DNA of 64,000 bases from Candidatus Multivorans sp. (GTDB taxonomy: Bacteria; Acidobacteriota; Thermoanaerobaculia; Multivoradales; Multivoraceae). The stretch covers positions 407,949-471,948 of the forward strand of contig OZ251997.1 of assembly GCA_965247095.1 (NCBI GenBank), read 5' to 3'. Shown one piece after another: positions 13,561 to 30,300 of the stretch (its first letter is position 1; each line of letters opens with the position of its first letter). The position numbers were made by a program, and so were the translations under genes. Below the pieces are notes generated by a model. That model searched no databases. It was not told the DNA's origin and worked only from the letters and a program-made list of their open reading frames with translations.

Positions 13561-13950
13561 TCAGCGGATGGTGCGGACTTCGATACCCGGCAGTTCCAGT
13601 TCGAGCCAGGCGCGGTCGCCGGTGAGAGCTGGTATTCCTAACAACGAAGCGGTGGCAAGGCAGGCGCGGTCGCCGAGGCCAAGACCTGCGGATGCAGTTG
13701 CGGGCCGGAGCGCGCCGCTTGAAAGGGCGACTTCTGAATCGAAAGGTAGTGTCTCCATTCTGAATTCGCCCAGCGTCTTCGCGACTTCTCTGGCCTCCCA
13801 TCCACGGTGATGGAGATGGGCGGCGACTTCAGCGAGGTTCACAGTGGAGATTGCCGCGCCGTCGCGCAAGGCGGCCCGGACGACCTCGGCGCCAGGCTCG
13901 CGCCAGAGCAGGGCCAACAGTGCCGAGGCATCGAGGAGGGCCCGAGCCAC
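13561..13950 (-). CDS. vapC: Type II toxin VapC (PIN domain ribonuclease)
   Basis: ALLDASALLALLWREPGAEVV... PIN-domain pattern, C-terminal acidic residues; probable GTG start ~13950 immediately after antitoxin TGA (start uncertain, ORF extends to 14037). Confidence 0.55.
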   Translation of the reverse strand: MARALLDASALLALLWREPGAEVVRAALRDGAAISTVNLAEVAAHLHHRGWEAREVAKTLGEFRMETLPFDSEVALSSGALRPATASAGLGLGDRACLATASLLGIPALTGDRAWLELELPGIEVRTIR

Positions 13951-13951
13951 C

Positions 13952-14293
13952 TCAGTCTCGTGCCGCCTCCCGGCGTCGCTCGGCGATGAAGGCGTCGACT
14001 TCGCTCCCCGATGAACTTGTGCCGTGCTTCCGGGCAAGGGCCTGGGCGCGGGCGACTGCCGCGTCCACCGCCGTTTCCACGGTTGTTATCCGGATCGTGT
14101 CGCCTTCGAGATCGAGGATGACCTTCTGTCGAGGCTGAAAACCCAATGCCGCGCGAAAATGGGCTGGTACTACGAGCCGGCCTGCGGAGTCGATGATGGT
14201 GGAAGTCTGTGCGGGAGCGGGTGTGGGATCATCTGCCATAGCGCAGGAGTCTACCATTGTGGCGCAGAATGGGAGGGTGCTCGGCTGTACCAC
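13952..14293 (-). CDS. vapB: Type II antitoxin VapB (AbrB/SpoVT/MazE-like swapped-hairpin domain)
   Basis: IIDSAGRLVVPAHFRAALGFQPRQKVILDLEGDTIRI matches SpoVT/AbrB fold antitoxins; sits immediately upstream of PIN toxin; true start may be internal (MADDPT...). Confidence 0.6.
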   Translation of the reverse strand: MVQPSTLPFCATMVDSCAMADDPTPAPAQTSTIIDSAGRLVVPAHFRAALGFQPRQKVILDLEGDTIRITTVETAVDAAVARAQALARKHGTSSSGSEVDAFIAERRREAARD

Positions 14294-14413
14294 GGGAGTG
14301 AGAGTAGTGGCCAGTCGCTGGGGCCAACGGTCAGCACGGCGGAGGGACGGACAAAGGTGATCACGCCGTCGCTCCGCCGTGCGTTGCCCGTATCGGCGGG
14401 TCGGTCGGCCCGG

Positions 14414-14710
14414 CTACACGCAGATCGTCATGCTCCGGAAGGTCAGGTGCATCCCGACGGCGGTCAAGAAGGGGGAGCCAAGAGCCTGGCCGACGGCCGT
14501 AAGGAGCGCTCCGGCGACCGAGTCGGTCCTGCAACTGTGGCTCCGCGCTCCTCCAGCCACTCTCGTCAGGTCGGTGACCGTGAGCTGGTCGAGGCCATCG
14601 TGGCCGATGGTCGAGGTGCCGCCCGCCATCACGGCGTCAGGCGGTGTGGCGAAGGAAGCGCCGACGCTCAATACAAGGGCGATCGATGCAGTGGCTAGGA
14701 ATCTCGTCAT
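14414..14710 (-). CDS. Small secreted protein (98 aa), paralog of 16896-17198; two Cys, C-terminal ...CV
   Basis: ATG at 14710 with conserved GAAAGGA RBS; signal peptide MTRFLATASIALVLSVGASFATPP; aligns with the other small protein (LSVG[GA][AS]FA.PP...G.D.L[DE]QL...PFL.A...CV); embedded in the 441-aa Arg-rich ORF which is rejected. Confidence 0.55.
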   Translation of the reverse strand: MTRFLATASIALVLSVGASFATPPDAVMAGGTSTIGHDGLDQLTVTDLTRVAGGARSHSCRTDSVAGALLTAVGQALGSPFLTAVGMHLTFRSMTICV

Positions 14711-14913: not shown

Positions 14914-15603
14914 TCAGCCGCTGAGCATCTGCTCGCGGCGCTCCGCACGGGCGAAGGTCAGGGCGACGATGGCGGCGATGATGAGGGCAATGCCTATACG
15001 GTTCTGGACGGCCATGGTGAGCAACTGCTCGGCGTCGCCCCCTTTCACGGCGAGCGGGTTCCACAATGGCGAGATGCGCGGCTCGACCGAGAGGTATGCC
15101 ATTCGAAGGTTCGGGGCGAGTAGTGCCATGGTTGCCATTGCGCCGGTGACCTCGCTTCGGAAGAGGGTGGCGAAACCCATCGCTGCTACCAGGTAGAAAG
15201 CGGCTCCCTGCGCCGTGCCGTAGATGGTCTGAACAACTGGAAAGGAAGTGAAGAAAGCAAAGGTAAGCACCGCCGTCGGCGTCAGACTTGCAAACAGGAT
15301 CAGCCCTGCGGCAGCGAGTTTTCCGGTCCATACGCGACGGGTGCCGCCGGGTACGGTGTAGGCGATCTCCAGGGTGCGCTCGTCGAGTTCGCCGGCGATG
15401 ATCCGGCCGCCCAGGAAGACGGCGAGAACCGCGACCGGCGCACCAATCAGGGTGTTCTGTGCGTCGGCGGGCTCGAAGTTGGGCCGAAGCCCGGAGATGA
15501 GCAGTATCGCCTGAATTCCCAACCACGGCAGGGGCAGCAGCGGCAGCAGCCAGTAACGCGGGCCCCCGATCAGCACGGCGGAGAGACGGAGAACGGTGAT
15601 CAT
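14914..15603 (-). CDS. ABC-2 family transporter permease, paralog 3 of 3
   Basis: 229 aa, ~6 TM; ~60-70% identical to 15762-16451 and 17458-18150; ATG overlaps upstream relic stop (ATGA). Confidence 0.7.
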   Translation of the reverse strand: MITVLRLSAVLIGGPRYWLLPLLPLPWLGIQAILLISGLRPNFEPADAQNTLIGAPVAVLAVFLGGRIIAGELDERTLEIAYTVPGGTRRVWTGKLAAAGLILFASLTPTAVLTFAFFTSFPVVQTIYGTAQGAAFYLVAAMGFATLFRSEVTGAMATMALLAPNLRMAYLSVEPRISPLWNPLAVKGGDAEQLLTMAVQNRIGIALIIAAIVALTFARAERREQMLSG

Positions 15604-15700
15604 GCCGGAGCTCGGTCACCGGTCGCCTGGGCCGGCCAGAGGTAGCCGTCCCCGACCCGTCCGAGGCCATGGCTCTCGATGACCGGTGTAGTGCCCGCCA
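15601..15700 (-). pseudogene. Relic 3' end of an ABC ATPase gene (duplication scar)
   Basis: Minus-strand translation ...TPVIESHGLGRVGDGYLWPAQATGDRAPA* matches C-terminus of the RND-ABC fusion protein (...PVEPTLEDGYLWLAQAARGRAPT*) and keeps the same ATGA stop/start junction with the following permease. Confidence 0.6.
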
Positions 15701-15761
15701 CGACCGAGTTGGGCGGTACAGCGACAGAGGGGCAGACACTCAAGACAAGTGGCGACTCCTG

Positions 15762-16451
15762 CTAGCGGCTGAGCATCTTCTCGCGACGCTCCGCGCGAGC
15801 GAAGGTCAGGGCGACGATGGCGGCGATGGTGAGCGCGATGCCGATGCGGTTCTGGATGGTCATGGCGAGCAACTGCTCGGCGTCGGCTCCTTTCACGGCG
15901 AGCGGGTTCCAGAACGGCGAGATGCGCAGGTGCCCGCCGAAGCCGGTCACAGAGCCGTTCAAGCCGAATAGCGCAATCGTGACCAAGGCACCGCTCACCT
16001 CGCTGCGGAACAGCGTGGAGAAACCCATCGCCGCGGCTAGGTAGAAGCTGGCTCCTTGGCCAGCACCGTGGAGGGTCTGGACGACCGGAAACGCGGTGAA
16101 GAAGGCGAACGCCAGAACAGTCATCGGGATCAGGCTGCCAAGCAGGATCAGGCCTGCGGCGGTTAGTTTCCCCCACCAGACCCGATGGGCGCCGCCCGGG
16201 ACGGTGTAGGCGACTTCAAGGGTGCGCTCGTCGAGTTCGCCGGTGATGATCCGGCCGCCGAGAAACACAGCGAGGATCGCTACTGGCGCACCGATCAAGG
16301 TGTTCTGTGCAGCGGCGGGTTCGAAGCCGGGACGGCCGGTGAACAGCAACAGCACCGCCTGAAGGCCTAGCCAAGTCAGTGGCAGCAGAGGTAGCAGCCA
16401 GTATCTTGGCCCTCCGATCAGCACGGCGGAAAGACGGACAACGGTTCTCAT
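15762..16451 (-). CDS. ABC-2 family transporter permease, paralog 2 of 3
   Basis: 229 aa multi-TM, paralogous to neighbours; ATG start overlapping relic stop. Confidence 0.7.
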   Translation of the reverse strand: MRTVVRLSAVLIGGPRYWLLPLLPLTWLGLQAVLLLFTGRPGFEPAAAQNTLIGAPVAILAVFLGGRIITGELDERTLEVAYTVPGGAHRVWWGKLTAAGLILLGSLIPMTVLAFAFFTAFPVVQTLHGAGQGASFYLAAAMGFSTLFRSEVSGALVTIALFGLNGSVTGFGGHLRISPFWNPLAVKGADAEQLLAMTIQNRIGIALTIAAIVALTFARAERREKMLSR

Positions 16452-16500
16452 TGCAGCTCTCCCCCGCGGGTTGCTTGGCCCGACCGGAGGTAGGTGTCTC
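16449..16500 (-). pseudogene. Second relic ABC-ATPase 3' end (duplication scar)
   Basis: C-terminus of the 116-aa ORF 16448..16798 reads ...PPRDTYLRSGQATRGGELQ*, resembling ...EDGYLWLAQAARGRAPT*; same ATGA junction with permease start. Confidence 0.45.
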
Positions 16501-16895
16501 TAGGCGGCGCGACGCCTCCTTCGCCTTGCATGTAGAGGGTGGTGGGCGGAGGGACTGGGGTGCAGGTACTCCGGTTCAGCATGTCCCGTCGCGACGAGCG
16601 GCCATCCTGCCGACGATCCAGAGAGCTGGCAGCGAGAAGAGGGATGCGATGGCGACGAACAGGACCGGAGAACCGCCGACGAGGGCCAACAGCCGACCGC
16701 TCAACCAGCTTCGCCCGAAGGCGCTGCCCGGGGCAGGTCGCAGCGGCCGGTAGGGGCGGCTTTGTAGGTCCATGAACGTCGCCATCGAGTCCTTCCAAAC
16801 AGGAGCGTGATGCGCTATCCGCCCGCCTCTTTCCGGGGCCGAAGCCGGCACCCGCAATCAGAGAGTCTCATCGAGCGAGACGGCGCCGTTGTTGG

Positions 16896-17198
16896 CTAGA
16901 CACACACAGCGTCCGCGAGGAACGGACCGGCCAACCCGGCAGCGTGCATGAGCCCCCTGCCCGTGTAGATCCCTACGAAGACAAAGGCCTCGCCCGTCGT
17001 CTCAAAAGCAGCAGTGCAAGCTCCGGACCACCAAGCTGCTCCCATCACGCCGACCATCTCGGCATCCGCGAGTTGTTCGAGCCCGGGATTGTCGACGCCC
17101 GGATAGTCGCCCGCCACGGCCGTGACAGGCGGTTCTGCGAAGGCGCCGCCGACACTCAGTACAAACGCTGCCACTGCGATAGATAGAACTTTCTTCAT
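16896..17198 (-). CDS. Small secreted protein (~100 aa), paralog of 14414-14710; two Cys, C-terminal ...CV
   Basis: ATG 17198 (MKKVLSIAVAAFVLSVGGAFAEPP) with GAAAGGA RBS; upstream in-frame ATG at 17222 also possible; signal peptide; paralogous alignment with the other small protein. Confidence 0.55.
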   Translation of the reverse strand: MKKVLSIAVAAFVLSVGGAFAEPPVTAVAGDYPGVDNPGLEQLADAEMVGVMGAAWWSGACTAAFETTGEAFVFVGIYTGRGLMHAAGLAGPFLADAVCV

Positions 17199-17457
17199 GA
17201 TTCTTGTTCCTTTCCGTTTCATGGGTTCTTGTTGCCGTCGACCCCTTCGGAGAGGCCGACGACGCTGGTAGACGGGAAGGTCCTGCGGAAGCCGAGGAGG
17301 CTTCGCAGGTCCACCGCCGCGCAGCGCCTTACGGCGTGCAGGGACTGTGGACCGCCTATAGACCTATGACGGAATTCGGAGCGGCTTTTTCTGGCGAGGA
17401 CCCTGAGAGGGGGCTGGGTGGCAGTGGCTGCGTGTCAGGTCGAGGGCGGAACCCGGC

Positions 17458-18150
17458 TCAGCCGCCGAGCATCTTCTCGCGGCGTTCGGCGCGGGCGAAT
17501 GTCAGGGCGACGATGGCGGCGATCGCGAGGGCGATGCCGATCCGGTTCTGGACGCTCATCGCGAGCATCTGGTCGGCGTCGGCTCGGTCCACCGAGAGGG
17601 GGTTCCAGAACGGCGAGATGCGGAGGGGGTTTTCGCCGAAGCCGGTGATCAGGCCGTTGAGGCCAAGGAGGCCGGTCGTGGTCAGGGCGCCGGCCACCTC
17701 GCTGCGGAACAGGGTGGCGAGCCCCATGGCTGCAACCAGGTAGAAGGTGACGCCCTGGGCCGCGCCGTAGAGACTCTGGAAGACGGGGAAGGAGGTGAAG
17801 AAGGCGAACGTGACGGACGCCATCAAGGCCAGACTGGCGAGTAGCAACAGGCCGGCTGCGGCGAGCTTGCCGAGCCAGACGCGGTGAGCGCCGCCGGGTA
17901 CGGTGTAGGCGATCTCAAGAGAGCGCTGGTCGAGTTCGCCGGTGATGATCCGCCCGCCCAGGAACACGGCGAGAACGGCCACCGGCATTCCGATCAGTGT
18001 GTTCTGGGCGGCGTCACGTTCGAAGCCCGTCGCGGCGCCGGCCAACAGCAGGATCGCCTGCACGGCTAGCCACAGTAGCGGCAGCAGGGGCAGCAACCAG
18101 TAGCGCCGCCCTGCCAGCAGCACCGCGGACAGACGCAGCACGGCGATCAC
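17458..18150 (-). CDS. ABC-2 family transporter permease, paralog 1 of 3 (cognate of the fused ATPase upstream)
   Basis: 230 aa multi-TM; GTG start overlapping the stop of the RND-ABC fusion ORF (GTGA). Confidence 0.7.
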   Translation of the reverse strand: MIAVLRLSAVLLAGRRYWLLPLLPLLWLAVQAILLLAGAATGFERDAAQNTLIGMPVAVLAVFLGGRIITGELDQRSLEIAYTVPGGAHRVWLGKLAAAGLLLLASLALMASVTFAFFTSFPVFQSLYGAAQGVTFYLVAAMGLATLFRSEVAGALTTTGLLGLNGLITGFGENPLRISPFWNPLSVDRADADQMLAMSVQNRIGIALAIAAIVALTFARAERREKMLGG

Positions 18151-21100
18151 GTCGGGGCTCTGCCGCGCGCCGCCTGCGCCAGCCAGAGGTAGCCGTCCTC
18201 GAGCGTGGGTTCGACTGGTTCGGCCCGCCGATCGGGGCGGTCGGCAGCCAGCACGCGCAGGCGGCTGCTGCCGTCGGGTTCCGGTTGGCGATCGGCGAGC
18301 ACGGACGCCTCGGGAAGCTCCGGCTCCTCATCTCCGGGCGCCGTCCATGACCAGACACGGCCTTCGGCCTCTCGGGACAGCGCCGCCGGCTCGCCGTCGA
18401 ACACCATGCGGCCGCCGGTGAGCACCAGTACGCGCTCGCAGGCCACCGCCACGTCCTCGACGACGTGGGTCGAGAAGAGGACGATGCGGTCCTTGGCCAG
18501 GCGCGAGAGCAGGTTGCGGAAGCGGACGCGCTCGCGTGGGTCGAGGCCGACGGTCGGCTCGTCGACGACGATGATCGGCGGCAGGCGCAACAGCGTGCGG
18601 GCCACCGCGACCCGCTGCCGCATGCCGCCGGAGTAGCCGCCGATCGGTTCGTCCGCTCGCTCGTCGAGTCCGACTTCGCGCAGCAGGGAGCCGATGCGCT
18701 CCGCTCGCTCCGACGCCTCGATCTGGTAGAGCGCGGCGTAGTACTCGAGGTACTGCCGGGCCGTCAGGCGCGCCGGCAGGCCGGCGTCCTGCGGCAGGTA
18801 GCCGACGTAGCGGGCCAGCCGTTTCCGTATCCTGAGCAGGGGCACGCCGCCCAGCGTGATCCGGCCGCGGGTCGAATCCAGAATGCCGGTCACCTGGCGG
18901 AGCAGGGTCGTCTTGCCCGCGCCGTTCGGACCCAGCACGCCGACCATGCCCCGCTCGACATCGAAGCTCACCGCGGCCAGCGCCTTCACCGTGTCGATCG
19001 GCAGATCGAGACCGAAGATCCGGGTTGCTGCCGCCCGCCAGAGGCGGATCAACATGCCGCGCCAGCCACGGGTGCGCCGGCGGCGGGTTGACCGCTGCTC
19101 CCGGCGCACCGTCTCGAGACGGGCCGTGCGACGTCCGAGTTGGATCAGAAGGATGATCGTGGAGAGGATGGCCACGACGATGAACCCGCCCACCGCGGGC
19201 TCGGTGGCGAGAGCCGGACCGACCAGGCCCGCGAGAAGCGCCCAGGGCAGCAGGGCGGACAGAACGCCCTCGATGCCGCCCGGCTCGACTCGACCAAGCG
19301 CGTCGGCGCGGCCGCGGGCACGCCGGACCTCGGTCAGCAGCCGGGAAGCGATCAGCAGTGCGGCAATCCAGGCGCCCAGTTGGATCAGGTCGGCACGGAA
19401 CCTCATGGCCAGGGCGACCGCGCCGGCGAGCAACAGGAGCAAGGGCAGGATGCGGTCCCGCGCGTCGGCGGGGTGGAAGGCCTGACCGCCGCGGTCGACG
19501 ACCTGCTTGGCGAAGTCGGTCGATGCCCGCAGCGCCCGGCGCACCGGCCCCGGCCGGCCGTAGGTCTTGCGCAGGTGACGGACCACCAGCCGGGGCGGTC
19601 CGGCGTCGGCCTCCGGTTCCGGTGTCGGCGGTTTTGGCACCAGCCACACGGTGAGCCCGAGCAGGGCGCCGGCGATGAGCACGGTCGTCGTGACCTGCCA
19701 GAACATGGACTCGATCACGCCGAGAACGAACAACGGGGCGGTGGCCGCGATCACCGCGCCGAGCCAGGTCAGAACCACCCAGGGTCCGACGCGGCTGAAG
19801 ACATCGTCCAGGCGCCGCAGAAAGACGTAGCCGACCGGGATGACGAGCAGCGTGAGCACGGTCGAGGTCAGAAGACCGCCGATCACCAGGGTCGCGAAGG
19901 GCGGCCAGAGCTCGTTCTCGCGTCCCGTGGCGATGGCCAGCGGTGCGAGCGCCGCGATCGTCGTCGCGCTGGTCATCAACACCGGACGCGCGCGCTCGCG
20001 AACCGCGGCCAGGGCGGCGGCGCCCGCACTCCAGCCGGCGCCGAGTACCCGTTGCTGCATCCGGTCGACGAGCAGAACCGCCGGGTTCACCGCCAGCCCG
20101 AGGAGGACGAGCGCCCCGAGCAGCGCCATCGGATCGAGCCCGATGCCGGAGAACATCAGCGCCCACAGCGAGCCGAGCAGGGCGAGCGGCAGCGCGAGCA
20201 GAACAAGGATCGGCAGGGTCATCGACTCGAACGCCACCGCCAGAACCAGGAACACGAGCATCACGACCGGCGCCAGGACGCGCCGGAACCAGCTCGTGTT
20301 CTCGTCCGAGCGGTCGAGCTCGATTGTCGTTCCGGGCGGACGGTGGATGCTGGCAAGCGCCTCGTCCAGGTTGCGGTCGAATTCCAGCCGCGCCGGTCCG
20401 CCGCTTGGTACGTCGGACGAGACGCTGTAGATGACCTCCCGCTCGCGGCGGCCGTTGTGGTGTGTGATCACCGGGGAAGCCGGCGCGCGGCGCACCTGCG
20501 CCAAGGCGGCTACTGGCAGGACGCCAGCGCTCGTGGAGACGCGGAGCCGGGACAGGCCGCTCAGCGACGCCTCGCGCTCGAAACTGCTGCCGTCCACGAC
20601 CCGGGCGTCACTGGGTCGGTTCTCCGCGCGCTGGACGACGATCGGAAGCTCACGGCCGTTCGGAAGCGGGAAGCCGCTGTTGATGCTCGTACCCTCACGG
20701 CCGGCGAGACTCAGCATCGGCAGCACATCGTCGAGCAGGACGCCGAAGGTGTCGAAGGCGCGACGGTTCGGGCTGACGTGGATCTCGTCGGGGCCGGGCC
20801 GTGAGGCTAGAAAGGCGCCGCTGATCCCCTCGATCTCCTTGAGCCGCTCGGCGACCTCCGTGGCCAGACCGGTCAACTGGTCGTTGTCGTTTCCGGACAG
20901 GATGACCCGTTTCGGCCCTGCCCCGAGCAACTCCTGGGCGCCGCCGCCACCGCCGGGACCGCCGCCCCGACCGCCCGGGCCTTCGCCTTCGCCGGGTCGC
21001 AGAATCTCGGTACCGGCGCGCCGGTTCGCGGCCCGGCGTACGAGCTGACGGATCCGCGCCGCGGTCAGTTCCTCGGGGCGGTCCTCGAGTGCCTCGAGGT

Positions 21101-22964
21101 GGACCGTCAACGAGCCCCCCTCCTCGCGGATCATGCTTTCGACGCGGTCCACGCCGTCGACTTCATGGACCGCCTCCAGAGGCTGGAAGGCGCGCACCGC
21201 GGAATCGAGCGAACTCCGGCTCTCGTCGAGGCGCACGGAGAACTGGACCTGGTCCGCGATCTCTGCTTCTGGCGACACTGTGTTTCCGAGCACAAAGGGC
21301 AGGGCCACGAGCGCGGTGACGACGACGGCGAGAGCCACCGACGTGATCCAGCTCGCAGGCCGCCTCAGTGCCGAGGCGAGAACTCCTGCAAACAGGATGC
21401 GGATCGGGTCGGGCGGCGCCTGTCCGGCGAAGCGTTCGCGGCGCTGTCGCAATCGGGCCAGCCGGCGGATCGCCGCGGGCGCGGCGAGATGGCGGGCCAG
21501 CAGCGGTACGAGACCGATCGCCACCAACAGGGAACCGAACAGCGGCAGCAGGATCGAGAGGGCGGCGATCGCGATCAGGTTGCGGATCATCGACGATCCC
21601 AGGTCGACGAGCAGCGGCGGCACGAAGACGACCGCGGTGGTCACGGACGCGGCGATGATCGCGCGGGCGGTGCGGCGGATGCCTCCCGCCGCGGCGTCGT
21701 CGGGACTTCGGCCCCGCTCGAGGCGGCGTTGGACGGACTCGAAGACCACGACGCTGTTGTCGACCAGCAGTCCGACGCCGACCGCAAGGCCGAAGAGGCT
21801 GATCAGGTTCAGGGTCTGGCCGGCCAGGTAGAGGAAGGACAGCGCCGCGGCCAGGCTGACCGGCACCGCGATCGCTACCACCGCCACGGCCCGCCATTGG
21901 CGCAGGAAGAGGAACAGGACCGCAAGGGCGATCAGGAAGCCTGAGAGACCGAGGTTTCTCAGACGGCCGATCTGGGTCTCGACGAGTTCCGCGGCGTCGA
22001 GGCTGATGAGCAGATGAATGCCGAGGGGCTCGAGATCTGCGTTGACCTCCTCGATCCGGCGGCGCAGGTCGCGGCCGAGGCGAACCAGGTTCGCGCCCTC
22101 TTCCTGGAAGAGCAAGACCCCAACCGAGGGGTCGCCGTTGACCCGGAACAGCATTTGTCGGCGGCCGGGGCCGACTTCGATCTCGGCGACGTGGCGCACC
22201 AGAGCCGGCCGGTCCGGCACGATCCGAACCTCGCCCATGGACACCGGGCCGACGGGACGGCCGTCCAGCATCACCGCCGTTCGCCCGGCTTCGTCTTCCA
22301 GGCTGCCGAGGTAGCGCAAGCGGCCGGCCGCGGCGCGCACCGCCGCCGTCACCTGCTCCGTGGTGACGCCGAGCGCTGCACAGCGGTTCGGGTCGACCCA
22401 GACGGTCAACTGCCGCGACGCACCGCCGCCGACGATCGCCTGACTGACGCCCGGCACCGCGGCCAGCCGCGGCGTGACGAGTTCCACGACCAGGTCGTGC
22501 AGGGCGTTCTGGTCGGCGGCGCCGGTGACCTGCAGGACCATGGCGAAGCTGGAAATGGCACTGCTGTCCTGGGCCTGGACGTCCAGGAAAGCGTTCCGCG
22601 GCTGGGTGCGGGCGAGGTCCGCGGCGATCCGGCGCACCTCCAGCTCGCGGACCTTCAGGTCGACGCCGCGTTCGAAGAGGATCGTGAAGCTGCCGCCGGC
22701 GCCGCTGACCTCGCCCCAGGTCTCGGCGACCCGCGGCAGGGTCCGTACCCGGGCCTCGAGCGGCATCAGGATCTCCCGCTCGATCGTCTCCGGTTCGCTG
22801 CCCGGGCGGAAGAAGTTGACGTAGAGCTGGTCGCCGGTCAGGGCCGGGAAGAGTTCGACCGGCAGTCGTCGCCAGGCGAACAGCCCCAGGATCACAAACC
22901 CCAGGAAGAACATCGCCACGGCGACGGGGCGGCGAATGGCAAGGGTGTCGAGACCGGCTCTCAC
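18147..22964 (-). CDS. Fusion protein: RND (AcrB/HAE-type) efflux pump, ~4 extra TM helices, C-terminal ABC transporter ATP-binding domain (1605 aa)
   Basis: N-terminus MRAGLDTLAIRRPVAVAMFFLGFVILGLFAWRRLPVELFPAL and internal TM blocks (GLAVGVGLLVDNSVVVFESV, LVFLVLAVAFESMTLPILVLLALPLA) are RND hallmarks; C-terminal ~300 aa has Walker A GPNGAGKTTL, Q-loop, signature LSGGMRQRVAVARTL, Walker B IIVVDEPTVGLD, H-loop STHVVED; single uninterrupted frame; GTG start. Confidence 0.75.
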   Translation of the reverse strand: MRAGLDTLAIRRPVAVAMFFLGFVILGLFAWRRLPVELFPALTGDQLYVNFFRPGSEPETIEREILMPLEARVRTLPRVAETWGEVSGAGGSFTILFERGVDLKVRELEVRRIAADLARTQPRNAFLDVQAQDSSAISSFAMVLQVTGAADQNALHDLVVELVTPRLAAVPGVSQAIVGGGASRQLTVWVDPNRCAALGVTTEQVTAAVRAAAGRLRYLGSLEDEAGRTAVMLDGRPVGPVSMGEVRIVPDRPALVRHVAEIEVGPGRRQMLFRVNGDPSVGVLLFQEEGANLVRLGRDLRRRIEEVNADLEPLGIHLLISLDAAELVETQIGRLRNLGLSGFLIALAVLFLFLRQWRAVAVVAIAVPVSLAAALSFLYLAGQTLNLISLFGLAVGVGLLVDNSVVVFESVQRRLERGRSPDDAAAGGIRRTARAIIAASVTTAVVFVPPLLVDLGSSMIRNLIAIAALSILLPLFGSLLVAIGLVPLLARHLAAPAAIRRLARLRQRRERFAGQAPPDPIRILFAGVLASALRRPASWITSVALAVVVTALVALPFVLGNTVSPEAEIADQVQFSVRLDESRSSLDSAVRAFQPLEAVHEVDGVDRVESMIREEGGSLTVHLEALEDRPEELTAARIRQLVRRAANRRAGTEILRPGEGEGPGGRGGGPGGGGGAQELLGAGPKRVILSGNDNDQLTGLATEVAERLKEIEGISGAFLASRPGPDEIHVSPNRRAFDTFGVLLDDVLPMLSLAGREGTSINSGFPLPNGRELPIVVQRAENRPSDARVVDGSSFEREASLSGLSRLRVSTSAGVLPVAALAQVRRAPASPVITHHNGRREREVIYSVSSDVPSGGPARLEFDRNLDEALASIHRPPGTTIELDRSDENTSWFRRVLAPVVMLVFLVLAVAFESMTLPILVLLALPLALLGSLWALMFSGIGLDPMALLGALVLLGLAVNPAVLLVDRMQQRVLGAGWSAGAAALAAVRERARPVLMTSATTIAALAPLAIATGRENELWPPFATLVIGGLLTSTVLTLLVIPVGYVFLRRLDDVFSRVGPWVVLTWLGAVIAATAPLFVLGVIESMFWQVTTTVLIAGALLGLTVWLVPKPPTPEPEADAGPPRLVVRHLRKTYGRPGPVRRALRASTDFAKQVVDRGGQAFHPADARDRILPLLLLLAGAVALAMRFRADLIQLGAWIAALLIASRLLTEVRRARGRADALGRVEPGGIEGVLSALLPWALLAGLVGPALATEPAVGGFIVVAILSTIILLIQLGRRTARLETVRREQRSTRRRRTRGWRGMLIRLWRAAATRIFGLDLPIDTVKALAAVSFDVERGMVGVLGPNGAGKTTLLRQVTGILDSTRGRITLGGVPLLRIRKRLARYVGYLPQDAGLPARLTARQYLEYYAALYQIEASERAERIGSLLREVGLDERADEPIGGYSGGMRQRVAVARTLLRLPPIIVVDEPTVGLDPRERVRFRNLLSRLAKDRIVLFSTHVVEDVAVACERVLVLTGGRMVFDGEPAALSREAEGRVWSWTAPGDEEPELPEASVLADRQPEPDGSSRLRVLAADRPDRRAEPVEPTLEDGYLWLAQAARGRAPT

Positions 22965-22977
22965 GTCGCTTTCCGGT

Positions 22978-25900
22978 TCAGGCGCCGGACGGGTCGCGGC
23001 GGCGCCGGGTCAGTCGCATCGAGTCGAGTATCAGGTAGAGGCAGGGCAGCACGAGGAGCGAGCCGACGGTGGAGGTGAGGATGCCGCCGATGATCGTGTA
23101 CGCCATCGGGCTTCGCAGTTCCGCGGCTTCGCCGGCGCCTATGGCAAGCGGCGCCAGGACCAGGACAGTGGTCAGGGTCGTCATCAGGATCGGCCGCAGG
23201 CGGATCGCGGCGGCCCGGGCCAGTGCGGTGCGCCGCTCCATGCCGGCGGCGAGCAGCCGGCGGGCGGTGGCAATCAGGAGGACCGCGTCGTTCACCGCCA
23301 CGCCCGCGAGCACGATGAGGCCGAGCAGCGCCATGACACCGACCGGCCGTCCGAGGAAGCCGAGGGTGCAGGCGACGCCGACCAGGGCCAGGGGGATCGA
23401 GAACAACACCGTGAGCGGTTGGAGCAGGGACTCGAACGTTCCGGCGAGGACCATCAGCACGAGAACGAGCGCCAGCAGCCCCGCCCAGCGCAGTTCGCCG
23501 ACGGCGCGCTCGCGTTCCTCTTCCTCGCCGGCGAGACGGACGATCAGACCGGAGGGCAGGTCGGTTGCTGCGATCGTCTCGCCGGCTGCCGCGATCGCGC
23601 GCGGGTAGTCGCTGTCGTCGGCGACCCGGGCGGTCACCTGGGCGACGCGGCGCTGGTCGCGGCGGAAGACCTCGCGGGCGCCCTCGGCGGGGACGAAGCG
23701 GGCGACTTGGCCGAGGGCGAGGTCCGCGCCGTCGTTGCTCGTGAAGCGCAGTTTGGCGAGTTCCTCGGGCCGCGGCTGGGGCAGAGAGAGGACGACGTGG
23801 CGCTCCTCGTCTCCAGTCGAGAGCAGGGTGACCCTGCGGCCGTCGAGTGCGGCCTGGAGCACCCGGGCGATCGTTTCCAGGCCGACGCCGAGGCCGTCGG
23901 CCATCGCGCGGTCGAGTTCGATCCGCAGTTCCGGCGGTCCGCCCTCGAACGAGGAGCGGACGTTCCAGAGTTCGGATCGCACAGCCATCGCGTCGCGCAA
24001 CCTGGTGGCCGCCAGGCGCAGGTCGGGCAGCGACTGGCCCGCGATCTCGACCACGATCGGCGGTCCCGCGGAGCCGAGCGCGCGCGATAGCGCCGACGCC
24101 CCGACCTCCCACTCGATCTCGGTATCCGGCAGGTCTTGGAAGTTGGGCTGCAGGGCGGTCACGATCTGGCCGCCGGTCGGCCCTTCGGCGGACAGCCGGA
24201 CGAGCAGGCGGGCCGTGTTCTCCTCAGTCAGCTCCGTGGTCACGAGCCGATCGTCCTCGGGCAGGCGGCCGACCTCGGCCTGGATCGCCTGCAGGTGCTC
24301 GCCGGCAGCCTGCCTGACCGCCTCTTCCAGCGTCGCCACGGCGCCGGCGGTGGCCTCGACGCGCTGGCCGGGCGGGCCGACCATGCGCACCGAGAACTGC
24401 CGCGGGTCGGCAGGCGGCAGCAGTTCGCTGCCCAGTCCGAGCAGAACGTAGACGGCGCCGGCGGCGGCGAGCACCGCCACTCCGACGACCAGCCAGCGAA
24501 GCTGAAGCAGGCCGAGAACCAGGCGCTCGACGGCGCCGAAGGCCCAGCCCAGCGGACGCGCTTCGTCTTCGTCAGCGTCCACCGGCATGCTGATGGATGC
24601 CGCCGCCGATGCGTCGGCCGTGGGCTCGGGCGCGGCGGTTTGCGGTTTGGCGCGCGGCAGGAGCCAGCGCGACAGGGCCGGAATCAGCATGATCGCGACC
24701 GCCAGGGAGGCGCCGAGGGAGGCGGTGACGGTGAAGGCGATGCCTTCGATCAGGCGCGCCGCCAGACCCTGGACGAAGAGGACGGGCAGGAAGACAACGC
24801 ACGTAGTGAGCGTCGAGGCGGCAATCGCGCCCGCGACCTCGCCCGTGCCCCTGGCGGCCGTGTCGGCTGCCGAGGCGCCGGGGCGGTGGCGGCGGTGGAT
24901 GCTCTCCACGACGACGATCGCGTTGTCGACCAGCATGCCGGCGCCGAGCGCCAGCCCGGCCAGGGTGATGATGTTCAGAGAGTGCCCCCACAGCCGCATC
25001 GCGAACAGCGCGACGAACAGGGACACCGGCACCGCTGAAGCGACGACCAAGGTCGGACCGAGGGAGCGCAGGAACAGCGCCAGCACGACGACCGCCAGGG
25101 CGATGCCGATCAGCGCCGCGTTCGTCAGGTCGTCCATCGCGTCCTCGATCAGCGCGGCGTCGTCGTTGACCATCGAGACGAGGACCCGGGGCAGGTCGCG
25201 CTCGAGGTCGTCGAGCGCCGCGCGCACGGTGCGCGAGACCTCCACGGTGTTGGCGCCCGCCTCCTTGAACACCTGCAGGCCGACGCCCTCCTGGCCGTTC
25301 ACCCGCACCAGGTGGTCGATCTCGGCGTGTGCGAGTTCGACCGTGGCGACGTCGGAGACCCGGATCGGCTGACGGACCTGCCGGCCTCCCTCCGCCTGCT
25401 GGGTGCGGTAGCGCACGACGACCCGCTCGACATCGCGGGAGTTCCGGAACCGGGAGATGCCTCGAACGAGATAGACCTGACCGCCGTCCTCCAGGGTGCC
25501 GGCGTCGATGTCGACGTTCTCGGCCACGAGGCGTTGCTCCAGTTGGTCCAAGGTGACGCCGAACGCCTGCAGGCGGTAGCGGTCGACGCGTACGCGGACC
25601 TCCAGTTCCCGCCCTCCGAGGACCCGCACCTCGGCAACGTCGGCGAGCTGCTCCATGGCCGGCGCCACCTGACGGCGCGCCAGGCGGCGGAGCTCGGCGA
25701 GATCAGGTCCTTCCGGCTCGGCGGCCAGCCCAAGGGTGATCACCGGCGACTGCCTCGGATCGAGTTGGCGGACCAGGACCTCGTCGACTTCGGGGTCGGC
25801 CGCGACCGGATTGACCGCCTTCTGCACGTCGATCAGCGCCAGGTCCATGTCGGCGTCCCAGTCGAAGCGGACGGTGGCGATCAGGCGGCCGGTGCGGGCG

Positions 25901-26172
25901 ACCTGGTGCACCTCGCGGAGGCCGCGCACCGTGAACAGGCGCTGCTCGACCTGCTCGCCGTAGAGCCGCTCCATCTCGGTCGGCGGCCGGTCGCCGGAAC
26001 GCACGGCGACGACGATGGTCGGCGAACGCAGGTCGGGCAGGAGGTCGATCGGCAGTTCACGCCACGACATCCAGCCCACCAAGGCGAATGCCAGGGCGGT
26101 GACGGTGACCGCTACGGGCCGGCGCGCAGCCAGGCGGGCGGGGCCGAAGGTCTCACCGGATGTTCGAGTCAT
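22978..26172 (-). CDS. RND efflux transporter permease subunit (AcrB/HAE family), 1064 aa
   Basis: MTRTSGETFGPARLAARRPVAVTVTALAFALVGWMSWRELPIDLLPDL..., 12-TM RND organisation with two large periplasmic loops; 13 bp upstream of the fusion gene. Confidence 0.8.
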   Translation of the reverse strand: MTRTSGETFGPARLAARRPVAVTVTALAFALVGWMSWRELPIDLLPDLRSPTIVVAVRSGDRPPTEMERLYGEQVEQRLFTVRGLREVHQVARTGRLIATVRFDWDADMDLALIDVQKAVNPVAADPEVDEVLVRQLDPRQSPVITLGLAAEPEGPDLAELRRLARRQVAPAMEQLADVAEVRVLGGRELEVRVRVDRYRLQAFGVTLDQLEQRLVAENVDIDAGTLEDGGQVYLVRGISRFRNSRDVERVVVRYRTQQAEGGRQVRQPIRVSDVATVELAHAEIDHLVRVNGQEGVGLQVFKEAGANTVEVSRTVRAALDDLERDLPRVLVSMVNDDAALIEDAMDDLTNAALIGIALAVVVLALFLRSLGPTLVVASAVPVSLFVALFAMRLWGHSLNIITLAGLALGAGMLVDNAIVVVESIHRRHRPGASAADTAARGTGEVAGAIAASTLTTCVVFLPVLFVQGLAARLIEGIAFTVTASLGASLAVAIMLIPALSRWLLPRAKPQTAAPEPTADASAAASISMPVDADEDEARPLGWAFGAVERLVLGLLQLRWLVVGVAVLAAAGAVYVLLGLGSELLPPADPRQFSVRMVGPPGQRVEATAGAVATLEEAVRQAAGEHLQAIQAEVGRLPEDDRLVTTELTEENTARLLVRLSAEGPTGGQIVTALQPNFQDLPDTEIEWEVGASALSRALGSAGPPIVVEIAGQSLPDLRLAATRLRDAMAVRSELWNVRSSFEGGPPELRIELDRAMADGLGVGLETIARVLQAALDGRRVTLLSTGDEERHVVLSLPQPRPEELAKLRFTSNDGADLALGQVARFVPAEGAREVFRRDQRRVAQVTARVADDSDYPRAIAAAGETIAATDLPSGLIVRLAGEEEERERAVGELRWAGLLALVLVLMVLAGTFESLLQPLTVLFSIPLALVGVACTLGFLGRPVGVMALLGLIVLAGVAVNDAVLLIATARRLLAAGMERRTALARAAAIRLRPILMTTLTTVLVLAPLAIGAGEAAELRSPMAYTIIGGILTSTVGSLLVLPCLYLILDSMRLTRRRRDPSGA

Positions 26173-26211: not shown

Positions 26212-27312
26212 TTATTGGGAAACCCGGACGCGGGTGCCGTCGGTCAGGGTTTCGAGGCCGCGAACGACGACCCGCTCGCCGAGCTCCAGCCCCTGGCGAA
26301 TCTCGGTGATCTCGTCGTCGCCGAGACCGAGAACGACTTCGCGCCGCACCGCGCGCTGGCCGTCGAGGACGAAGACGACGCGCCGGCCGCCGCGCTCGGT
26401 AACCGCCTCGCGCGGAATGACGGGGACGTCGTTGCGCTGCTCGACGACCAGGGTCACTTCGACGAACATGCCCGGCCGCAGCAGGCCGCCGGGATTGCGC
26501 ACCGCCACCTCGGCGCGGAAGGTGTGGGTGACCGGGTCGACCTCGGGGGACAGGCGGACGACCCCGCCTTCGAACGTCTGGCCCTCCCAGGCGAAGTGCC
26601 TGAGCCGGCCCCGCTGCCCGGGGTGGACCCGCGCCAGTTCGGGGCCCACGAGGTCGATGTCGGCGATCAGGGAGGCGACCGGAGCGATCCGGGCCACCTG
26701 GAAGCCCCGGGAAACGAGCTGGCCGTCGGCGATCGGCATGCCGTTCGGGTCGCGGGCGAGTTCCATCAGCACGCCGCCGATCGGGGTCAGCATCTTCGCG
26801 CGGTCCTCGGTAAGCAGGCTCTGCTCCCAGGTCGCCTTCGCGTCTTCGAGCGCGATCTCGGCGCGGCGCAGCTCTTCGGCACTGATCAGTTCCTGCTCGA
26901 ACAGCTTGGCGCGGGCGTCGCGTTCGGCCTCGGCGCCCAGGTAGGCTTGGTGGGTCGCCTCGACCCGGGCCGCGAGCCGTGCGTCCTCGCCGGTGACCTC
27001 CGCGATCATCTGCTCGGGGACGACGCGGTCGCCTTCGGCCAGCCGGTCGCCGGAACCGTTGCGGCCGATCAGCAGTCTCCCCGGCGTCTCGACCTGCAGG
27101 ACGATGCTCTCGGCCGCTCGCAGAGTGCCGGTGGCGACGATCAGATCCTCGACGTTGCCGGTTTCGACCTCGGCCGCGGTGACCGGCACCAGGAAGTCGA
27201 CGGGGTCCGTGCTGCCGCCGCCTTCGCAGGCGACGATCACGGCGCAGGCGGCTATCGCGAGGCCCGCATGCCGGAGGCCGGCGATCGGGCGGGAGGGCTG
27301 CCGCGGGCTCAT
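26212..27312 (-). CDS. Efflux RND adaptor subunit (membrane fusion protein, HlyD/AcrA family), probable lipoprotein
   Basis: Start moved to ATG 27312 (MSPRQPSRPIAGLRHAGLAIAACAVIVAC), overlapping upstream stop as ATGA; coiled-coil segment (AEELRRAEIALEDAKATWEQSLL) plus beta-barrel/MP region typical of MFPs; upstream 173 aa of the ORF are Arg-rich junk. Confidence 0.75.
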   Translation of the reverse strand: MSPRQPSRPIAGLRHAGLAIAACAVIVACEGGGSTDPVDFLVPVTAAEVETGNVEDLIVATGTLRAAESIVLQVETPGRLLIGRNGSGDRLAEGDRVVPEQMIAEVTGEDARLAARVEATHQAYLGAEAERDARAKLFEQELISAEELRRAEIALEDAKATWEQSLLTEDRAKMLTPIGGVLMELARDPNGMPIADGQLVSRGFQVARIAPVASLIADIDLVGPELARVHPGQRGRLRHFAWEGQTFEGGVVRLSPEVDPVTHTFRAEVAVRNPGGLLRPGMFVEVTLVVEQRNDVPVIPREAVTERGGRRVVFVLDGQRAVRREVVLGLGDDEITEIRQGLELGERVVVRGLETLTDGTRVRVSQ

Positions 27313-30300
27313 AGCCCCGCGCCCCCGGTCTCGGCGCGGCCGGCGGCGGCGCTGTTGTCGAGCCGCACGAAGCGCACCGCGTCCGCGGCGACCGCTTTGC
27401 CGGAGGTCTCGTCGCTCAGGACCAGTTCGGTCGGGCCGCCGGCCAGATCGAAGTCGCCCAGCACCGCCCATCCCGCGCCCGCGGCCGCGGCGTCGAAGTC
27501 GATCGGCCGGGAGACGCCGCCGTTCTGCAACTCCAGGTCGTAGGTGCCGAGAGCCAGCCCCAGGTTCACCGAGACCCGTACGCCGCCGTCGTCGTCCCCT
27601 CCTCTTCGTGGTGCGTCTCCACCTCCGTCGCCGACCCGCACTTCCCGACGCACGGCCGTGGCGCCGGCTGGCAGGGGCGAGAGCGACGGCACGTGCAGTT
27701 CGACCCGCCAGCGGCCGTCTGCCGGCAACTCCGTCCGGTAGATCGCGCGGCTGTTCCCTTCGCCCGCGGGCGCCAGGGCGGTCGTGCGGCGGTAGCGGCC
27801 CCAACTGGTGGGCTGTGCGTAGCGCGACCATTCGGTCGGCGGTCCGCCGAAGCTCTGGTAGACGAGCAGACCCTGATCCGTCTGGTTCGACGGCGCGAAG
27901 AAGCCAGCGAGACCGCCCTGCAGCCGGAAGCCGCCGGCATCCGCTTCATCCGTCTCGATCGAGAAGCCGGGGTCCAGGTCGTCGACGACGATCATGTCGG
28001 TCGTTGACTCGAGGAAGGCGGGCAGCCAGTCGGCCGGCCGCGTGCCGCGCAGTGGTTCGGCATCGACGATCGTCTCGTTGTTGACGCTCGGCAGATCGAT
28101 CGGGAACTCCCGGCGGTTCAGCGACAGGTAAGGTGAAGCCAGCATCCTGCCCGGCACCCTGGAAGTGACCAGACCGAATTCGACGGAGCTGTTTCCCGGG
28201 ATCAGGGTCGGCTCGCTGGACTCCCAGCGCACGCCGCTCGGTGCGCGGACGGCGTAGCGGAGCCGGAACAGGCCCGGAGCCTCCTCGCCGTTGTGGACGA
28301 AGAGACGGGTCTGGTACTGCGGCAGGCCCTGGTCGTCGTCCGCCAGCCGCACGAGTTCGGCGGGGGATACGACGAAGCCCGGCAGGTCGGTCTGGTGGAG
28401 GAAGTCGCCGACCAGGCCGGCGAGGTCCAGGCCGGCTTCCTGAGCGGCCCGTTCGAGGTCGGCGGCGGTGAAGGTCGATCCCCGGTGGTCGCGCATGAGG
28501 TTCGCGAGCATCGCGGCGGTCCGTTCCCGGCCGGCGCCGTCCAGAATTGCGCCGGCAAGGGCCGAAGTCTTCAGATAGAGCGCGTTCAACGCTTTCTTCG
28601 GCTCCTCTTCGACGTCCATTTCCGTCAGCGAGGCGCCGAGAACGGCGTCCCATACCTCGGGGCGGTCGGTGAGGCTCTGTACGATGGTGCTGGAGACCGA
28701 GGAGGCGCCTCCGCCGAGCTGGCTGAAGATGGCGCCCTGCAACACGCTGGCGATCGTCCAGCCGAACTCGCGGTCGAACAGGTGGGCCGAGAAGTACGAT
28801 TCGCCGCCGTTCACCAGCCGGTTCACCAGGTTGTTGCACAGTTCCTCGAGCGCCAGCGCCTCCGGACCGCGGGCGCCGGTCTGGTACATGAACAGATTGC
28901 GGACACCGCCGACCTCCACGTTGCCGCCCGAGAAGTCGTTGCGGAAGAACTGCTGCAGCCCGGAGGCCTTTGCCCGGGGCAGACCGCCCTCCTGCTCCTC
29001 GAACCGCTCCGGGTTGCGGAACAGGAACTCGAAGCGAGCGGTCGGCAGGCTGCTCTCGCTGAGCAGCAGCATGCCCGGCGGCGCGCGCTCGGTGTCCATC
29101 CGCCAGCCGCCGCCGTAGGAGCGCAGGGTCCAGGGAACTTCAACCAGGGTGAGCTGACGGTAGGGGTAGGGCAGGCCCAGCTCGCGCGCGCTGGTGAAGC
29201 GCTCGGCGGCGACTGCCTCGATCTCTTCCCGGGCGTCGGCGAAGAGCTCCACGTTTCTCAGATGGCGGGGGTGGAGGAGCAGTTCGATCTCGACGCCCTC
29301 GACCTCCGTCGTCCGGCGATCGAACCGACCGGCGACCAGGGCCGCTTCGGGCACGACTGCCACGGGTGCGAACCGTTGCCGTTCGCCGGCCGGCTCGGCT
29401 CTGCCTGGCCCGGCGACCGTCCAGCCCGAGGGGGCGCCGACCTCCAGGTCGAGTTCGAAGAAGTCTCTGGGACGCCTTCGCGGATCGGTGAGGCCGACCG
29501 ACGTGCCGGGGCGCGGCATCCAGGCCAGCGCGGCGGGCAGCGCGACGTAGCGGCGCTCCGCAAAGCCGTTCAGGGCGCCGAGAAGGATGATCTGGGCGTC
29601 CTGGAACTTGATCCGGTTGAAGTCGATCGCGGAATCCAGGTACGCGAAGCGAAGGTCGGGCCGTCCGTGGGCGCGCAGGCGAAGGTCGACGGCCTCGCCC
29701 GCGGCCGGCGAGCGCCCGAGGTCGACCTCGAGCAGGCCGTCGCGGTGGTTGAATCCGAGCGTCGCGCCGGCGGTATCCTCAATGGCGTCGACCTGGAGGC
29801 CGGGGTTCAGGCTGAAGAGAGCCTGCGAACCGCCGGCGGCGAGGAACCGGACGTTGACATCGAGGGTCAGGCGGCCGCGCGGTGCGATGTCGACGGCGCC
29901 GTGGATCTGTTCCAGGTCAAGGACCGGTTCGCTCTGGCGTGCCGTGTGGGCGATGCGCCAGTCGTCGATTTCGTCGACCCGGTTGCCGGCCGTGACCGCG
30001 GCGGCTGCGATCGTTCCGATGGCCGCCGCCAGGAGGCCGGCGCCGGCGGTGGCCCACAGGCGTCGCCGGGTGTCGTCGAGCCGGGGATGGACGGCGACGG
30101 CGACCGCAAGCATCCCAACGGCCAGCGCCGCGACCGTGGCCCGGTTCATCAAGTTGAAGGCGGTCCAGATCTGGGGCGCGACCTCGGAAGGATTGGTGCC
30201 GAAGCCGCCGTTGATCGCCAGCATCGGCAGGACGTAGGTCGGCACGCGGAAGGAGAGAAGCATCGGCCCGATGGCCAGCCCGAGGCCCAGGAGCGCGGCG

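Follow-up and report, generated by a model that had tools for sequence, protein, structure and literature searches.

How does a gene for a fused efflux pump come to be followed by three related permease genes, and what might the additional permeases be for? We addressed this question in a 64,000-nucleotide stretch of contig OZ251997.1 from Candidatus Multivorans sp. (hereafter the window), in which one gene joins an AcrB-like RND pump, via a transmembrane (TM) linker, to an ABC-2-type ATPase and is followed by three intact permease paralogs of ~230 aa (P1 to P3), as an initial annotation made from the sequence had recognized. All array features lie on the minus strand, and positions are those of the window. 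Starting from the fusion gene, the array is composed of P1, a peptide gene (A), P2, a dead peptide gene, P3, a second peptide gene (B), and a permease stump. Comparison with relatives traces it to an old duplication that was later reshaped by additional duplications, deletions, truncations, and recombination. The module exchanged at present is a peptide core together with the permease downstream of it, not a permease with the peptide downstream. Our preferred reading, held tentatively and somewhat short of an even chance, is that of bacteriocin/immunity-like peptide/permease cassettes sharing one fused ATPase.

The duplication has left its record at the boundaries between the copies. The last 54 nt of the ATPase gene (18151-18204, ending ...LEDGYLWLAQAARGRAPT*) are the source of two relics, one in front of P2 and one in front of P3. 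This terminal 54-mer was slid across the whole window, giving a background of 16.3±3.5 matches. The P3 relic, with 42 of 54 positions matching (z ~7), is the best non-self match in the window on both strands, and the P2 relic, with 31 of 54 (z ~4), stands exactly at the expected place; only five further positions on that strand reach its score, and the maximum on the opposite strand is 32. The match of the relics to the C-terminal end of the ATPase, proposed in the initial annotation, therefore withstood the alignment. Homology to the ATPase 3' end ends ~55-60 nt upstream of each permease start. The source segment also contains the ATPase C-terminal motif LEDGYLWLA, which we take to resemble the LDEVFL-type C-terminal motif of DrrA-like ABC-2 ATPases. 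The stop/start overlap (ATGA or GTGA) described for each copy is indeed present at every one, but it is weak evidence of duplication, because the permease start codon and its A-initial second codon largely force these four letters.

In the relatives, the relics range from well preserved to unrecognizable and decay with divergence: the P2 relic is identical in L001 and L002, and the P3 relic is recognizable in L001-L004 (locus labels are explained below). The part that stays similar is the last ~15 nt, hosting a GGAG-like site. The relic thus appears to be a neutral scar, of which only this ribosome-binding site is kept by selection. Two functional roles for the relic were considered and rejected. 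RNA structures in which the relic pairs with the permease 5' end and hides the start codon are predicted at every junction, yet they beat shuffled sequences only at P2 and at a truncated fourth unit, not at P1 or P3, and the relic also decays in many relatives, so that an RNA role does not hold as a general explanation. A role as recombination handle into position 1 was dismissed on account of the tight orthologous grouping of position-1 copies and of relic identities of 57-78% over 54 nt. Within the array, terminator-like sites were not in excess, and neither sigma-70-like promoters nor Rfam families were found, a lone ‘mir-939’ hit being a chance match to the terminal hairpin.

The permease copies themselves are arranged head-to-tail as colinear direct-repeat families with spacings of 848 and 1699 nt. 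Their proteins share 73% (P1/P2), 71% (P1/P3), and 75% (P2/P3) identity, slightly above the ~60-70% first estimated, and their genes 75-77% at the nucleotide level. A genome scan yielded 73 related loci (L001-L073), the closest of which are annotated as Candidatus Multivorans (Acidobacteriota, Thermoanaerobaculia). Copy number varies among them: they carry one to four permease copies, two being the commonest number within the Multivorans group. A single copy is present in 8 of the 38 nearest related loci with the fusion, and in all distant relatives, which have no peptide gene. Some extra copies are truncated or frameshifted (L004.3, L007.2, L017.3/4, L021.2), and the sets of extra copies are mosaic between near-identical genomes. 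In a neighbor-joining tree, the only tree method used, the position-1 copies cluster tightly as orthologs, and every copy at a later position falls into a single clade of its own, which has longer branches and evolves faster (bootstrap 155/200, 78%). Since P2 and P3 have orthologs elsewhere and belong to this non-first clade, the array is old and not the product of a recent triplication; the genome-specific event that the initial annotation implied is also at odds with a synonymous divergence (dS) of ~0.7 between the paralogs.

Purifying selection has kept all three full copies. The ratio of nonsynonymous to synonymous divergence (dN/dS) of P1 orthologs amounts to 0.08-0.12 at dS <= 0.37 and to 0.17-0.22 for the more diverged L013/L005 pairs, and that of the downstream copies against their orthologs to 0.13-0.33 (P2 0.23-0.33; P3/L004.4 0.13). 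Between the paralogs of the window it is 0.24-0.25, and none of them carries a disabling mutation.

What was duplicated can be approached from the spacers. An ancestral tandem duplication copied ~54 nt of the ATPase 3' end together with the permease and the peptide gene downstream of it. In favor of the segmental duplication suggested at first are the position of the junction, ~18 codons inside the ATPase 3' end, and the peptide genes included in the repeat; the unit proposed then is not the one exchanged today. Nor does each unit hold the relic, permease, and small protein attributed to it. Within the 158-nt spacer between P2 and P3, ~95 nt are homologous to the 5' half of peptide genes A and B (local alignment score 42-44 vs 20±2.6 in shuffles), and the homologous open reading frame (ORF) of L002 matches peptide B in a tblastn search. 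Unit 2 therefore once had a peptide gene, and it is now without an intact small-protein gene; a fourth, truncated unit had gone unmentioned.

The peptides have a composite layout, consisting of a Sec-type N-terminus (MKKVL..LSVGGAFA|EPP), a linker, a leader helix, and a core. The leader follows the consensus L-T-x-x-D-M-x-x-V-x-G-G (e.g., L-T-D-A-D-M-V-A-V-T-G-G), and the leaders of both A and B fit the double-glycine consensus, which asks for hydrophobic residues at -4, -7, -12, and -15, an acidic one at -8, Gly at -2, and G/A/S at -1. G53, C61, and C99 are invariant, the core of peptide A reading C61...C99-V. The hypervariable cores measure 35-41 aa (typically ~39 aa), are 50% hydrophobic with 14% Gly, contain exactly two Cys (one near the start and one penultimate), and are modeled by AlphaFold as a helical hairpin at a predicted local distance difference test (pLDDT) value of ~80. 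As many as 15 core types occur among 49 peptides, and in relatives, peptides of the B type invariably stand last in the array. A search among 5.8e9 proteins returned 48 matches only, none with a Pfam domain; the four with a source name are proteins of Acidobacteria metagenome-assembled genomes (MAGs), and several share contigs with permease homologs. Judged by these searches, the peptides are a clade-restricted family. The sole PDB sequence match of the peptide profile is the signal peptide of cytochrome c1, and peptide B has a sub-threshold NCBIfam match to the BrnQ amino-acid carrier model (16 bits vs a 790-bit cut-off).

The boundary of exchange falls inside the peptide gene. L003-L006 have a P1 that matches the one in the window at ~93% of DNA positions. 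In comparison with them, the spacer after P1 and the leader-encoding part of the peptide gene are 90-100% identical, but one or two codons past Cys61 (around codon 62) identity drops to 30-50%, and it is still low within the next gene. The end of the high-identity tract lies at window position 17011/17012 in the comparisons with L004 and L003; against L004, similarity returns within P2, at codon 61 (16271), where the L004 copy is 5'-truncated. Partial Mantel tests that correct for P1 distance show co-variation of non-first permeases with the upstream peptide core (r=0.49, p ~0.0005, n=27), and none with the core encoded downstream (r=-0.04, p=0.63, n=18).

Table 1. Features of the permease array and its flanks in the 64-kb window.
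Feature	Position	Strand	Remarks
RND (AcrB-like)::TM linker::ABC-2-type ATPase fusion gene	18147..22964	-	Pfam
Second RND gene	22978-26172	-	Upstream of fusion
HlyD-type adaptor	26212-27831	-	Upstream of fusion
P1, permease copy 1, 230 aa	17458..18150	-	Position-1 ortholog; start overlaps ATPase stop (GTGA, 4 nt)
Peptide A, 100-108 aa, leader LADAEMVGVMGA	16896..17222	-	Sec-like signal ..GGAFA|EPP; conserved start MKKVL at 17198
ORF of 93 aa between peptide A and P2	16576..16857	-	One hydrophobic segment; uncertain gene
ATPase 3'-end relic before P2, ...RDTYLRSGQATRGGELQ*	16452..16505	-	31/54 nt; contains GGAG ribosome-binding site
P2, permease copy 2, 229 aa	15762..16451	-	Orthologs L001.2, L002.2 (91% aa)
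Dead 5' half of peptide gene (signal region to ...HGL)	15662..15755	-	Fused directly to P3-side ATPase relic
ATPase 3'-end relic before P3, ...GDGYLWPAQATGDRAPA*	15604..15657	-	42/54 nt
P3, permease copy 3, 229 aa	14914..15603	-	Orthologs L004.4 (96% aa), L003.3
Peptide B, 98 aa, leader LTVTDLTRVAGG	14414..14710	-	Signal ..SFA|TPP; core C...C-V
Truncated fourth unit: short ATPase relic + first ~25 permease codons (VITFVRPSAVLTVGPSDWPLL)	14290..14389	-	Repeat family + alignment; GTG at 14364
Stem-loop from relic + first codons of fourth permease	14334-14382	-	-40.8 kcal/mol, z -4.2
vapB-like (AbrB/MazE) + vapC-like (PIN) pair	13561..14293	-	Pfam MazE_antitoxin, PIN; distal array edge

Next, the permeases were examined for family and fold. 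PF12679 (ABC2_membrane_2) scores 23.0, 17.2, and 25.0 bits for P1, P2, and P3, all under the gathering cut-off of 27.2, and several close homologs carry a precomputed match to this family; one source names homologs ‘multi-copper enzyme maturation permease’. A PDB sequence search with the permease matched no chain. The AlphaFold2 (AF2) model of P1 has a pLDDT of 78, and all its Foldseek matches with a template modeling score (TM-score) >0.4 are type V transmembrane domains (NosY, Wzm, PmtCD), although the best E-value is only 0.15. P1-P3 are probably ABC-2-like (type V) permeases, which are encoded beside an ABC-2-type ATPase and are predicted to couple with it. Variability among the extra permeases is highest at residues 161-180 (entropy 1.7-2.05 vs a mean of 0.81), a non-helical stretch after the fifth helix (TM5), with a second peak at residues 31-40, and the segment 71-90 is near-invariant in every permease copy. 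In the model, residues 161-180 would face the periplasm and residues 71-90 would form a cytoplasmic loop contacting the ATPase.

The presumed partner of these permeases is encoded as a single polypeptide. The fusion ORF comprises 1605 aa, with ACR_tran at residues 8-1049 (E 5e-139), ABC_tran at 1331-1471 (Pfam), and the hydrophobic linker between the RND and ATPase parts. Its nucleotide-binding domain (NBD) is nearest to GldA/DrrA/NodI-type models, which represent ATPases of ABC-2 transporters. The fusion is one continuous ORF (~1600 aa) in almost every one of the 73 loci, and in all of them a second RND gene precedes and an ABC-2-like permease follows it. The fusion occurs in several acidobacterial classes, the module of RND, RND::ABC fusion, and permease being kept across Thermoanaerobaculia, Holophagae, Polarisedimenticolaceae, strain Mor1, and a few gammaproteobacterial MAGs. 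The fusion brings together a trimeric RND pump and a dimeric ABC module. A full-text literature search for RND-ABC or AcrB-ABC fusions gave no paper, and a literature search on ABC-2/double-glycine systems and the organism gave nothing directly relevant.

Taken as cassettes of a bacteriocin/immunity-like type, the parts of the locus would be assigned as follows. The ATPase domain of the fusion would have P1 as its housekeeping membrane partner. Each extra permease would be a specificity module docking on the same ATPase, its cytoplasmic loop being invariant and its predicted periplasmic loop hypervariable, and would handle the disulfide-stapled hydrophobic peptide encoded just upstream. It might either expel this peptide from the membrane, providing self-immunity as in LanFEG or Pmt systems, or deliver it to the RND pump, which would export it. 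P3 would be an orphan immunity-type copy, because the peptide gene before it has decayed. A bolder version appears doubtful to us, namely that of a peptide-warfare locus of an undescribed kind, in which an ATPase hard-wired to an RND pump serves a variable rack of plug-in permeases, each matched to an upstream polymorphic, Sec-targeted, disulfide-stapled peptide toxin, with strains swapping cassettes of core and permease through leader-anchored recombination and with orphan permeases providing immunity against the peptides of neighbors.

Several points weigh against the cassette reading. The upstream co-variation may reflect where recombination is possible, i.e., in the conserved leader, or shared ancestry. 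The pairing is incomplete, with the terminal peptide B followed only by a truncated permease and P1 having no peptide before it. The topology and the call of a coupling loop derive from the AF2 model and from general type V ABC architecture, and the putative toxin and immunity roles are read from sequence. It is unusual for a Sec signal to precede a double-glycine leader. Gly at position -2 is invariant, but position -1 is G/A in 26 of 49 peptides and E/R/K in 22 of 49, and canonical cleavage is consequently not assured. Neither peptide matched a curated bacteriocin model of Pfam or NCBIfam at E <= 0.1, and no C39-peptidase exporter was found among the operon genes and large window ORFs, a scan leaving aside small ORFs and the rest of the genome.

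Among the alternatives, two survive best, each of them unlikely. In the first, raised already in the initial annotation, the paralogs are subfunctionalized and assemble into a heteromeric permease, e.g., as P1/P2 or P2/P3 heterodimers in the manner of LanE/LanG. Many ABC-2 systems have two paralogous membrane subunits. Two copies being the commonest state in the clade, the near-invariance of segment 71-90, and purifying selection in all copies would suit such an assembly. Fixed partners are hard to reconcile, however, with close relatives carrying one, two, three, or four copies, and with the single copy of 8 of 38 loci and of the distant relatives. The extra copies are moreover often truncated or frameshifted, differ in mosaic fashion between near-identical genomes, and co-vary with the peptide core. 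Specialization of some kind among the paralogs is supported, because their divergence occurred under purifying selection, and this part of the original suggestion stands; an obligate heteromeric permease is unlikely and fits poorly with one to four copies and mosaic copy sets, although particular pairs may assemble in this way.

The second alternative, to which we assign a similarly low likelihood, holds that the extra permeases adapt the pump to other small-molecule or lipid substrates and that the peptides are membrane-hairpin partner subunits or regulators, not toxins. The modeled hydrophobic hairpin with both Cys on the same (periplasmic) side and the Sec-type N-terminus are compatible with a resident membrane subunit, as is the finding that no dedicated peptide exporter or protease was detected nearby among the large window ORFs; the core machine, in addition, exists without peptides in distant relatives. 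On the other hand, structural subunits are rarely hypervariable, and the observed core diversity (15 types among 49 peptides) comes with a sharp leader/core boundary and with a conserved double-glycine-type leader that has no obvious role in a resident subunit.

Far less probable is that the copies are redundant neutral duplicates heading for loss without specialized function: the relics, the dead peptide gene, and the truncated fourth copy do show decay, but P2 and P3 are intact, have orthologs to which they relate at dN/dS 0.13-0.33, and have reached a paralog dS of ~0.7 without disabling mutations. That the repeated region arose through misassembly of a MAG, an idea for which nothing specific speaks except that the relatives are MAGs, is scarcely credible, given that the copies differ at ~25% of nucleotides, too many for mis-assembled repeats, and that the architecture recurs in many independent assemblies, complete chromosomes included.

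Returning to the cassette reading, known systems offer partial parallels. LanFEG lantibiotic immunity transporters (e.g., NisFEG) and the ABC-2 immunity/export sets of circular bacteriocins likewise combine an ABC-2 ATPase and small permease paralogs, of 6 TM segments as predicted here, beside a gene for a hydrophobic secreted peptide, and the role proposed in common is to expel the peptide from the membrane. In contrast to LanFEG, the locus of the window has no modification enzymes, its ATPase is fused to an RND pump, its extra permeases have no ATPase of their own, and the fixed E/G permease pair is replaced by one to four permeases. There is no membership at the sequence level: the window ATPase scores 105 bits against the lantibiotic-protection model TIGR03740, below its cut-off of 309.75 bits, and this model ranks behind the GldA/DrrA/NodI-type ones. 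In Staphylococcus aureus, the ABC-2 (type V) exporter PmtABCD releases phenol-soluble modulins, which are amphipathic helical peptides, and at the same time protects the producer from them; PmtCD is among the fold matches of P1 (TM-score 0.46). This Gram-positive system differs in having two ATPases and a fixed pair of permeases, and in peptides that lack both leader and signal and are not encoded in polymorphic cassettes.

The peptides are best compared with class II microcins (e.g., microcin V, exported by CvaAB-TolC). Shared features are a small precursor, the motif L-x-x-x-D/E-L/M-x-x-V-x-G-G/A, an unmodified core that is hydrophobic and rich in Gly, a disulfide, predicted in our peptides, to a Cys close to the C-terminus, and a partner gene immediately downstream. 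Here, however, a Sec-like signal precedes the leader, about half of the family is without the canonical -1 residue, a C39-peptidase ABC exporter was not found among the large window ORFs, and the partner is an ABC-2 permease instead of a small immunity protein. The genetic architecture recalls the contact-dependent inhibition (CDI) genes cdiA-CT/cdiI and Rhs, with a conserved 5' part, a sharp breakpoint, a variable 3' part co-varying with the next gene, downstream cassettes with fragments of the upstream conserved gene, and orphan immunity-type genes. Unlike in these systems, the toxin candidate is a ~40-aa peptide and not a large domain, and the relic derives from the ATPase gene instead of the gene for the toxin; it still matches its source at 57-78% over 54 nt, too little for a recombination handle.

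On the side of the transporter, P1 matches NosY of NosDFY (7o0z_E, probability 0.99, TM-scores 0.56/0.50) and Wzm of Wzm/Wzt (7k2t_B, TM-score 0.53) in fold, but at sequence identities of 10-17% and a Foldseek E-value of 0.15, and the locus has no nos genes, NosD, or NosL. MacAB-TolC, which transports heat-stable enterotoxin II, provides a precedent for an ABC engine with a tripartite pump moving a Sec-exported disulfide-bonded peptide outwards from the periplasm, and MdtABC for two RND paralogs in one operon with an HlyD-type adaptor upstream. In the window, by contrast, RND and ABC are one polypeptide, the ABC part is of ABC-2 and not of MacB type, and the cargo is conjectural.

The duplication scars are a clear record of a transporter subunit gene multiplying, which is ordinary by itself. 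Unusual is the combination of a shared RND-fused ATPase, a variable permease rack, and clade-restricted peptides with at least 15 core types. If the peptides and permeases are toxin/immunity pairs, ABC-2 permeases can serve as exchangeable modules of immunity or export specificity. The locus would then also offer a handle on strain competition in Candidatus Multivorans and related Thermoanaerobaculia, known only from metagenomes, and natural chimeras for studying substrate selection by type V ABC membrane domains.

Further features of the array and its flanks complete the description. The ORF of 93 aa between peptide A and P2 occurs only in L001 and L002, at 98-100% nucleotide identity, which is uninformative with regard to coding, and it has no match in Pfam or NCBIfam. 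Its descent from a peptide paralog by decay was suggested by a weak tblastn match (E 0.003) and rejected on profile comparison (hhalign probability 0.3%); it could encode a small immunity-like membrane protein or be no gene at all.

At the distal end, the fourth unit stops where the vapB-like ORF begins (14293). The stem-loop formed from its remains lies after the terminal peptide gene and before vapB, and is kept in 10 loci (the window, L001-L005, L017, L032, L033, and L037), with 16 bp, 96% pairing, and two compensatory pair changes; the start codon in the hairpin loop is lost in four loci. Here, a fragment of a gene may have taken on the role of a terminator or mRNA stabilizer. Both vapB and vapC were detected in 21 of the 38 related loci and one of the two in a further 6. 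A link of vapBC to multi-copy arrays was considered, as the pair is missing in the single-copy loci L009 and L011, but full tabulation showed no strict association, vapBC presence being independent of permease copy number across the 38 loci.

Directly upstream, a second ABC-2 system is located on the same strand (27309-31858). Its ATPase (30857-31858) is 38% identical to the fused NBD, and a protein of 1183 aa combines an N-terminal ABC-2 membrane domain with a C-terminal Golvesin_C-like domain, its ORF overlapping the annotated start of the adaptor ORF.

Three observations concern particular relatives. In L015 (6000-12500) and L018 (7350-13900), the fusion gene and P1 are 60-89% identical, but from the post-P1 spacer onward, across the peptide gene, the second permease gene, and the flank, the value jumps to 85-97%. 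Either a large recombination tract whose breakpoint lies just after P1 or a MAG/binning mosaic would account for this; transfer specific to the cassette was rejected, because the high-identity tract extends far past the array into the flank, and the tract is therefore not a case of cassette mobility. In L030 (8669-8986 and 11343-11636), a peptide gene is situated on the opposite strand, between the fusion gene and the sole permease. Finally, the terminal peptide of L034 (10890-11261) carries a repetitive ADAAP(Y/H) insertion in its linker.

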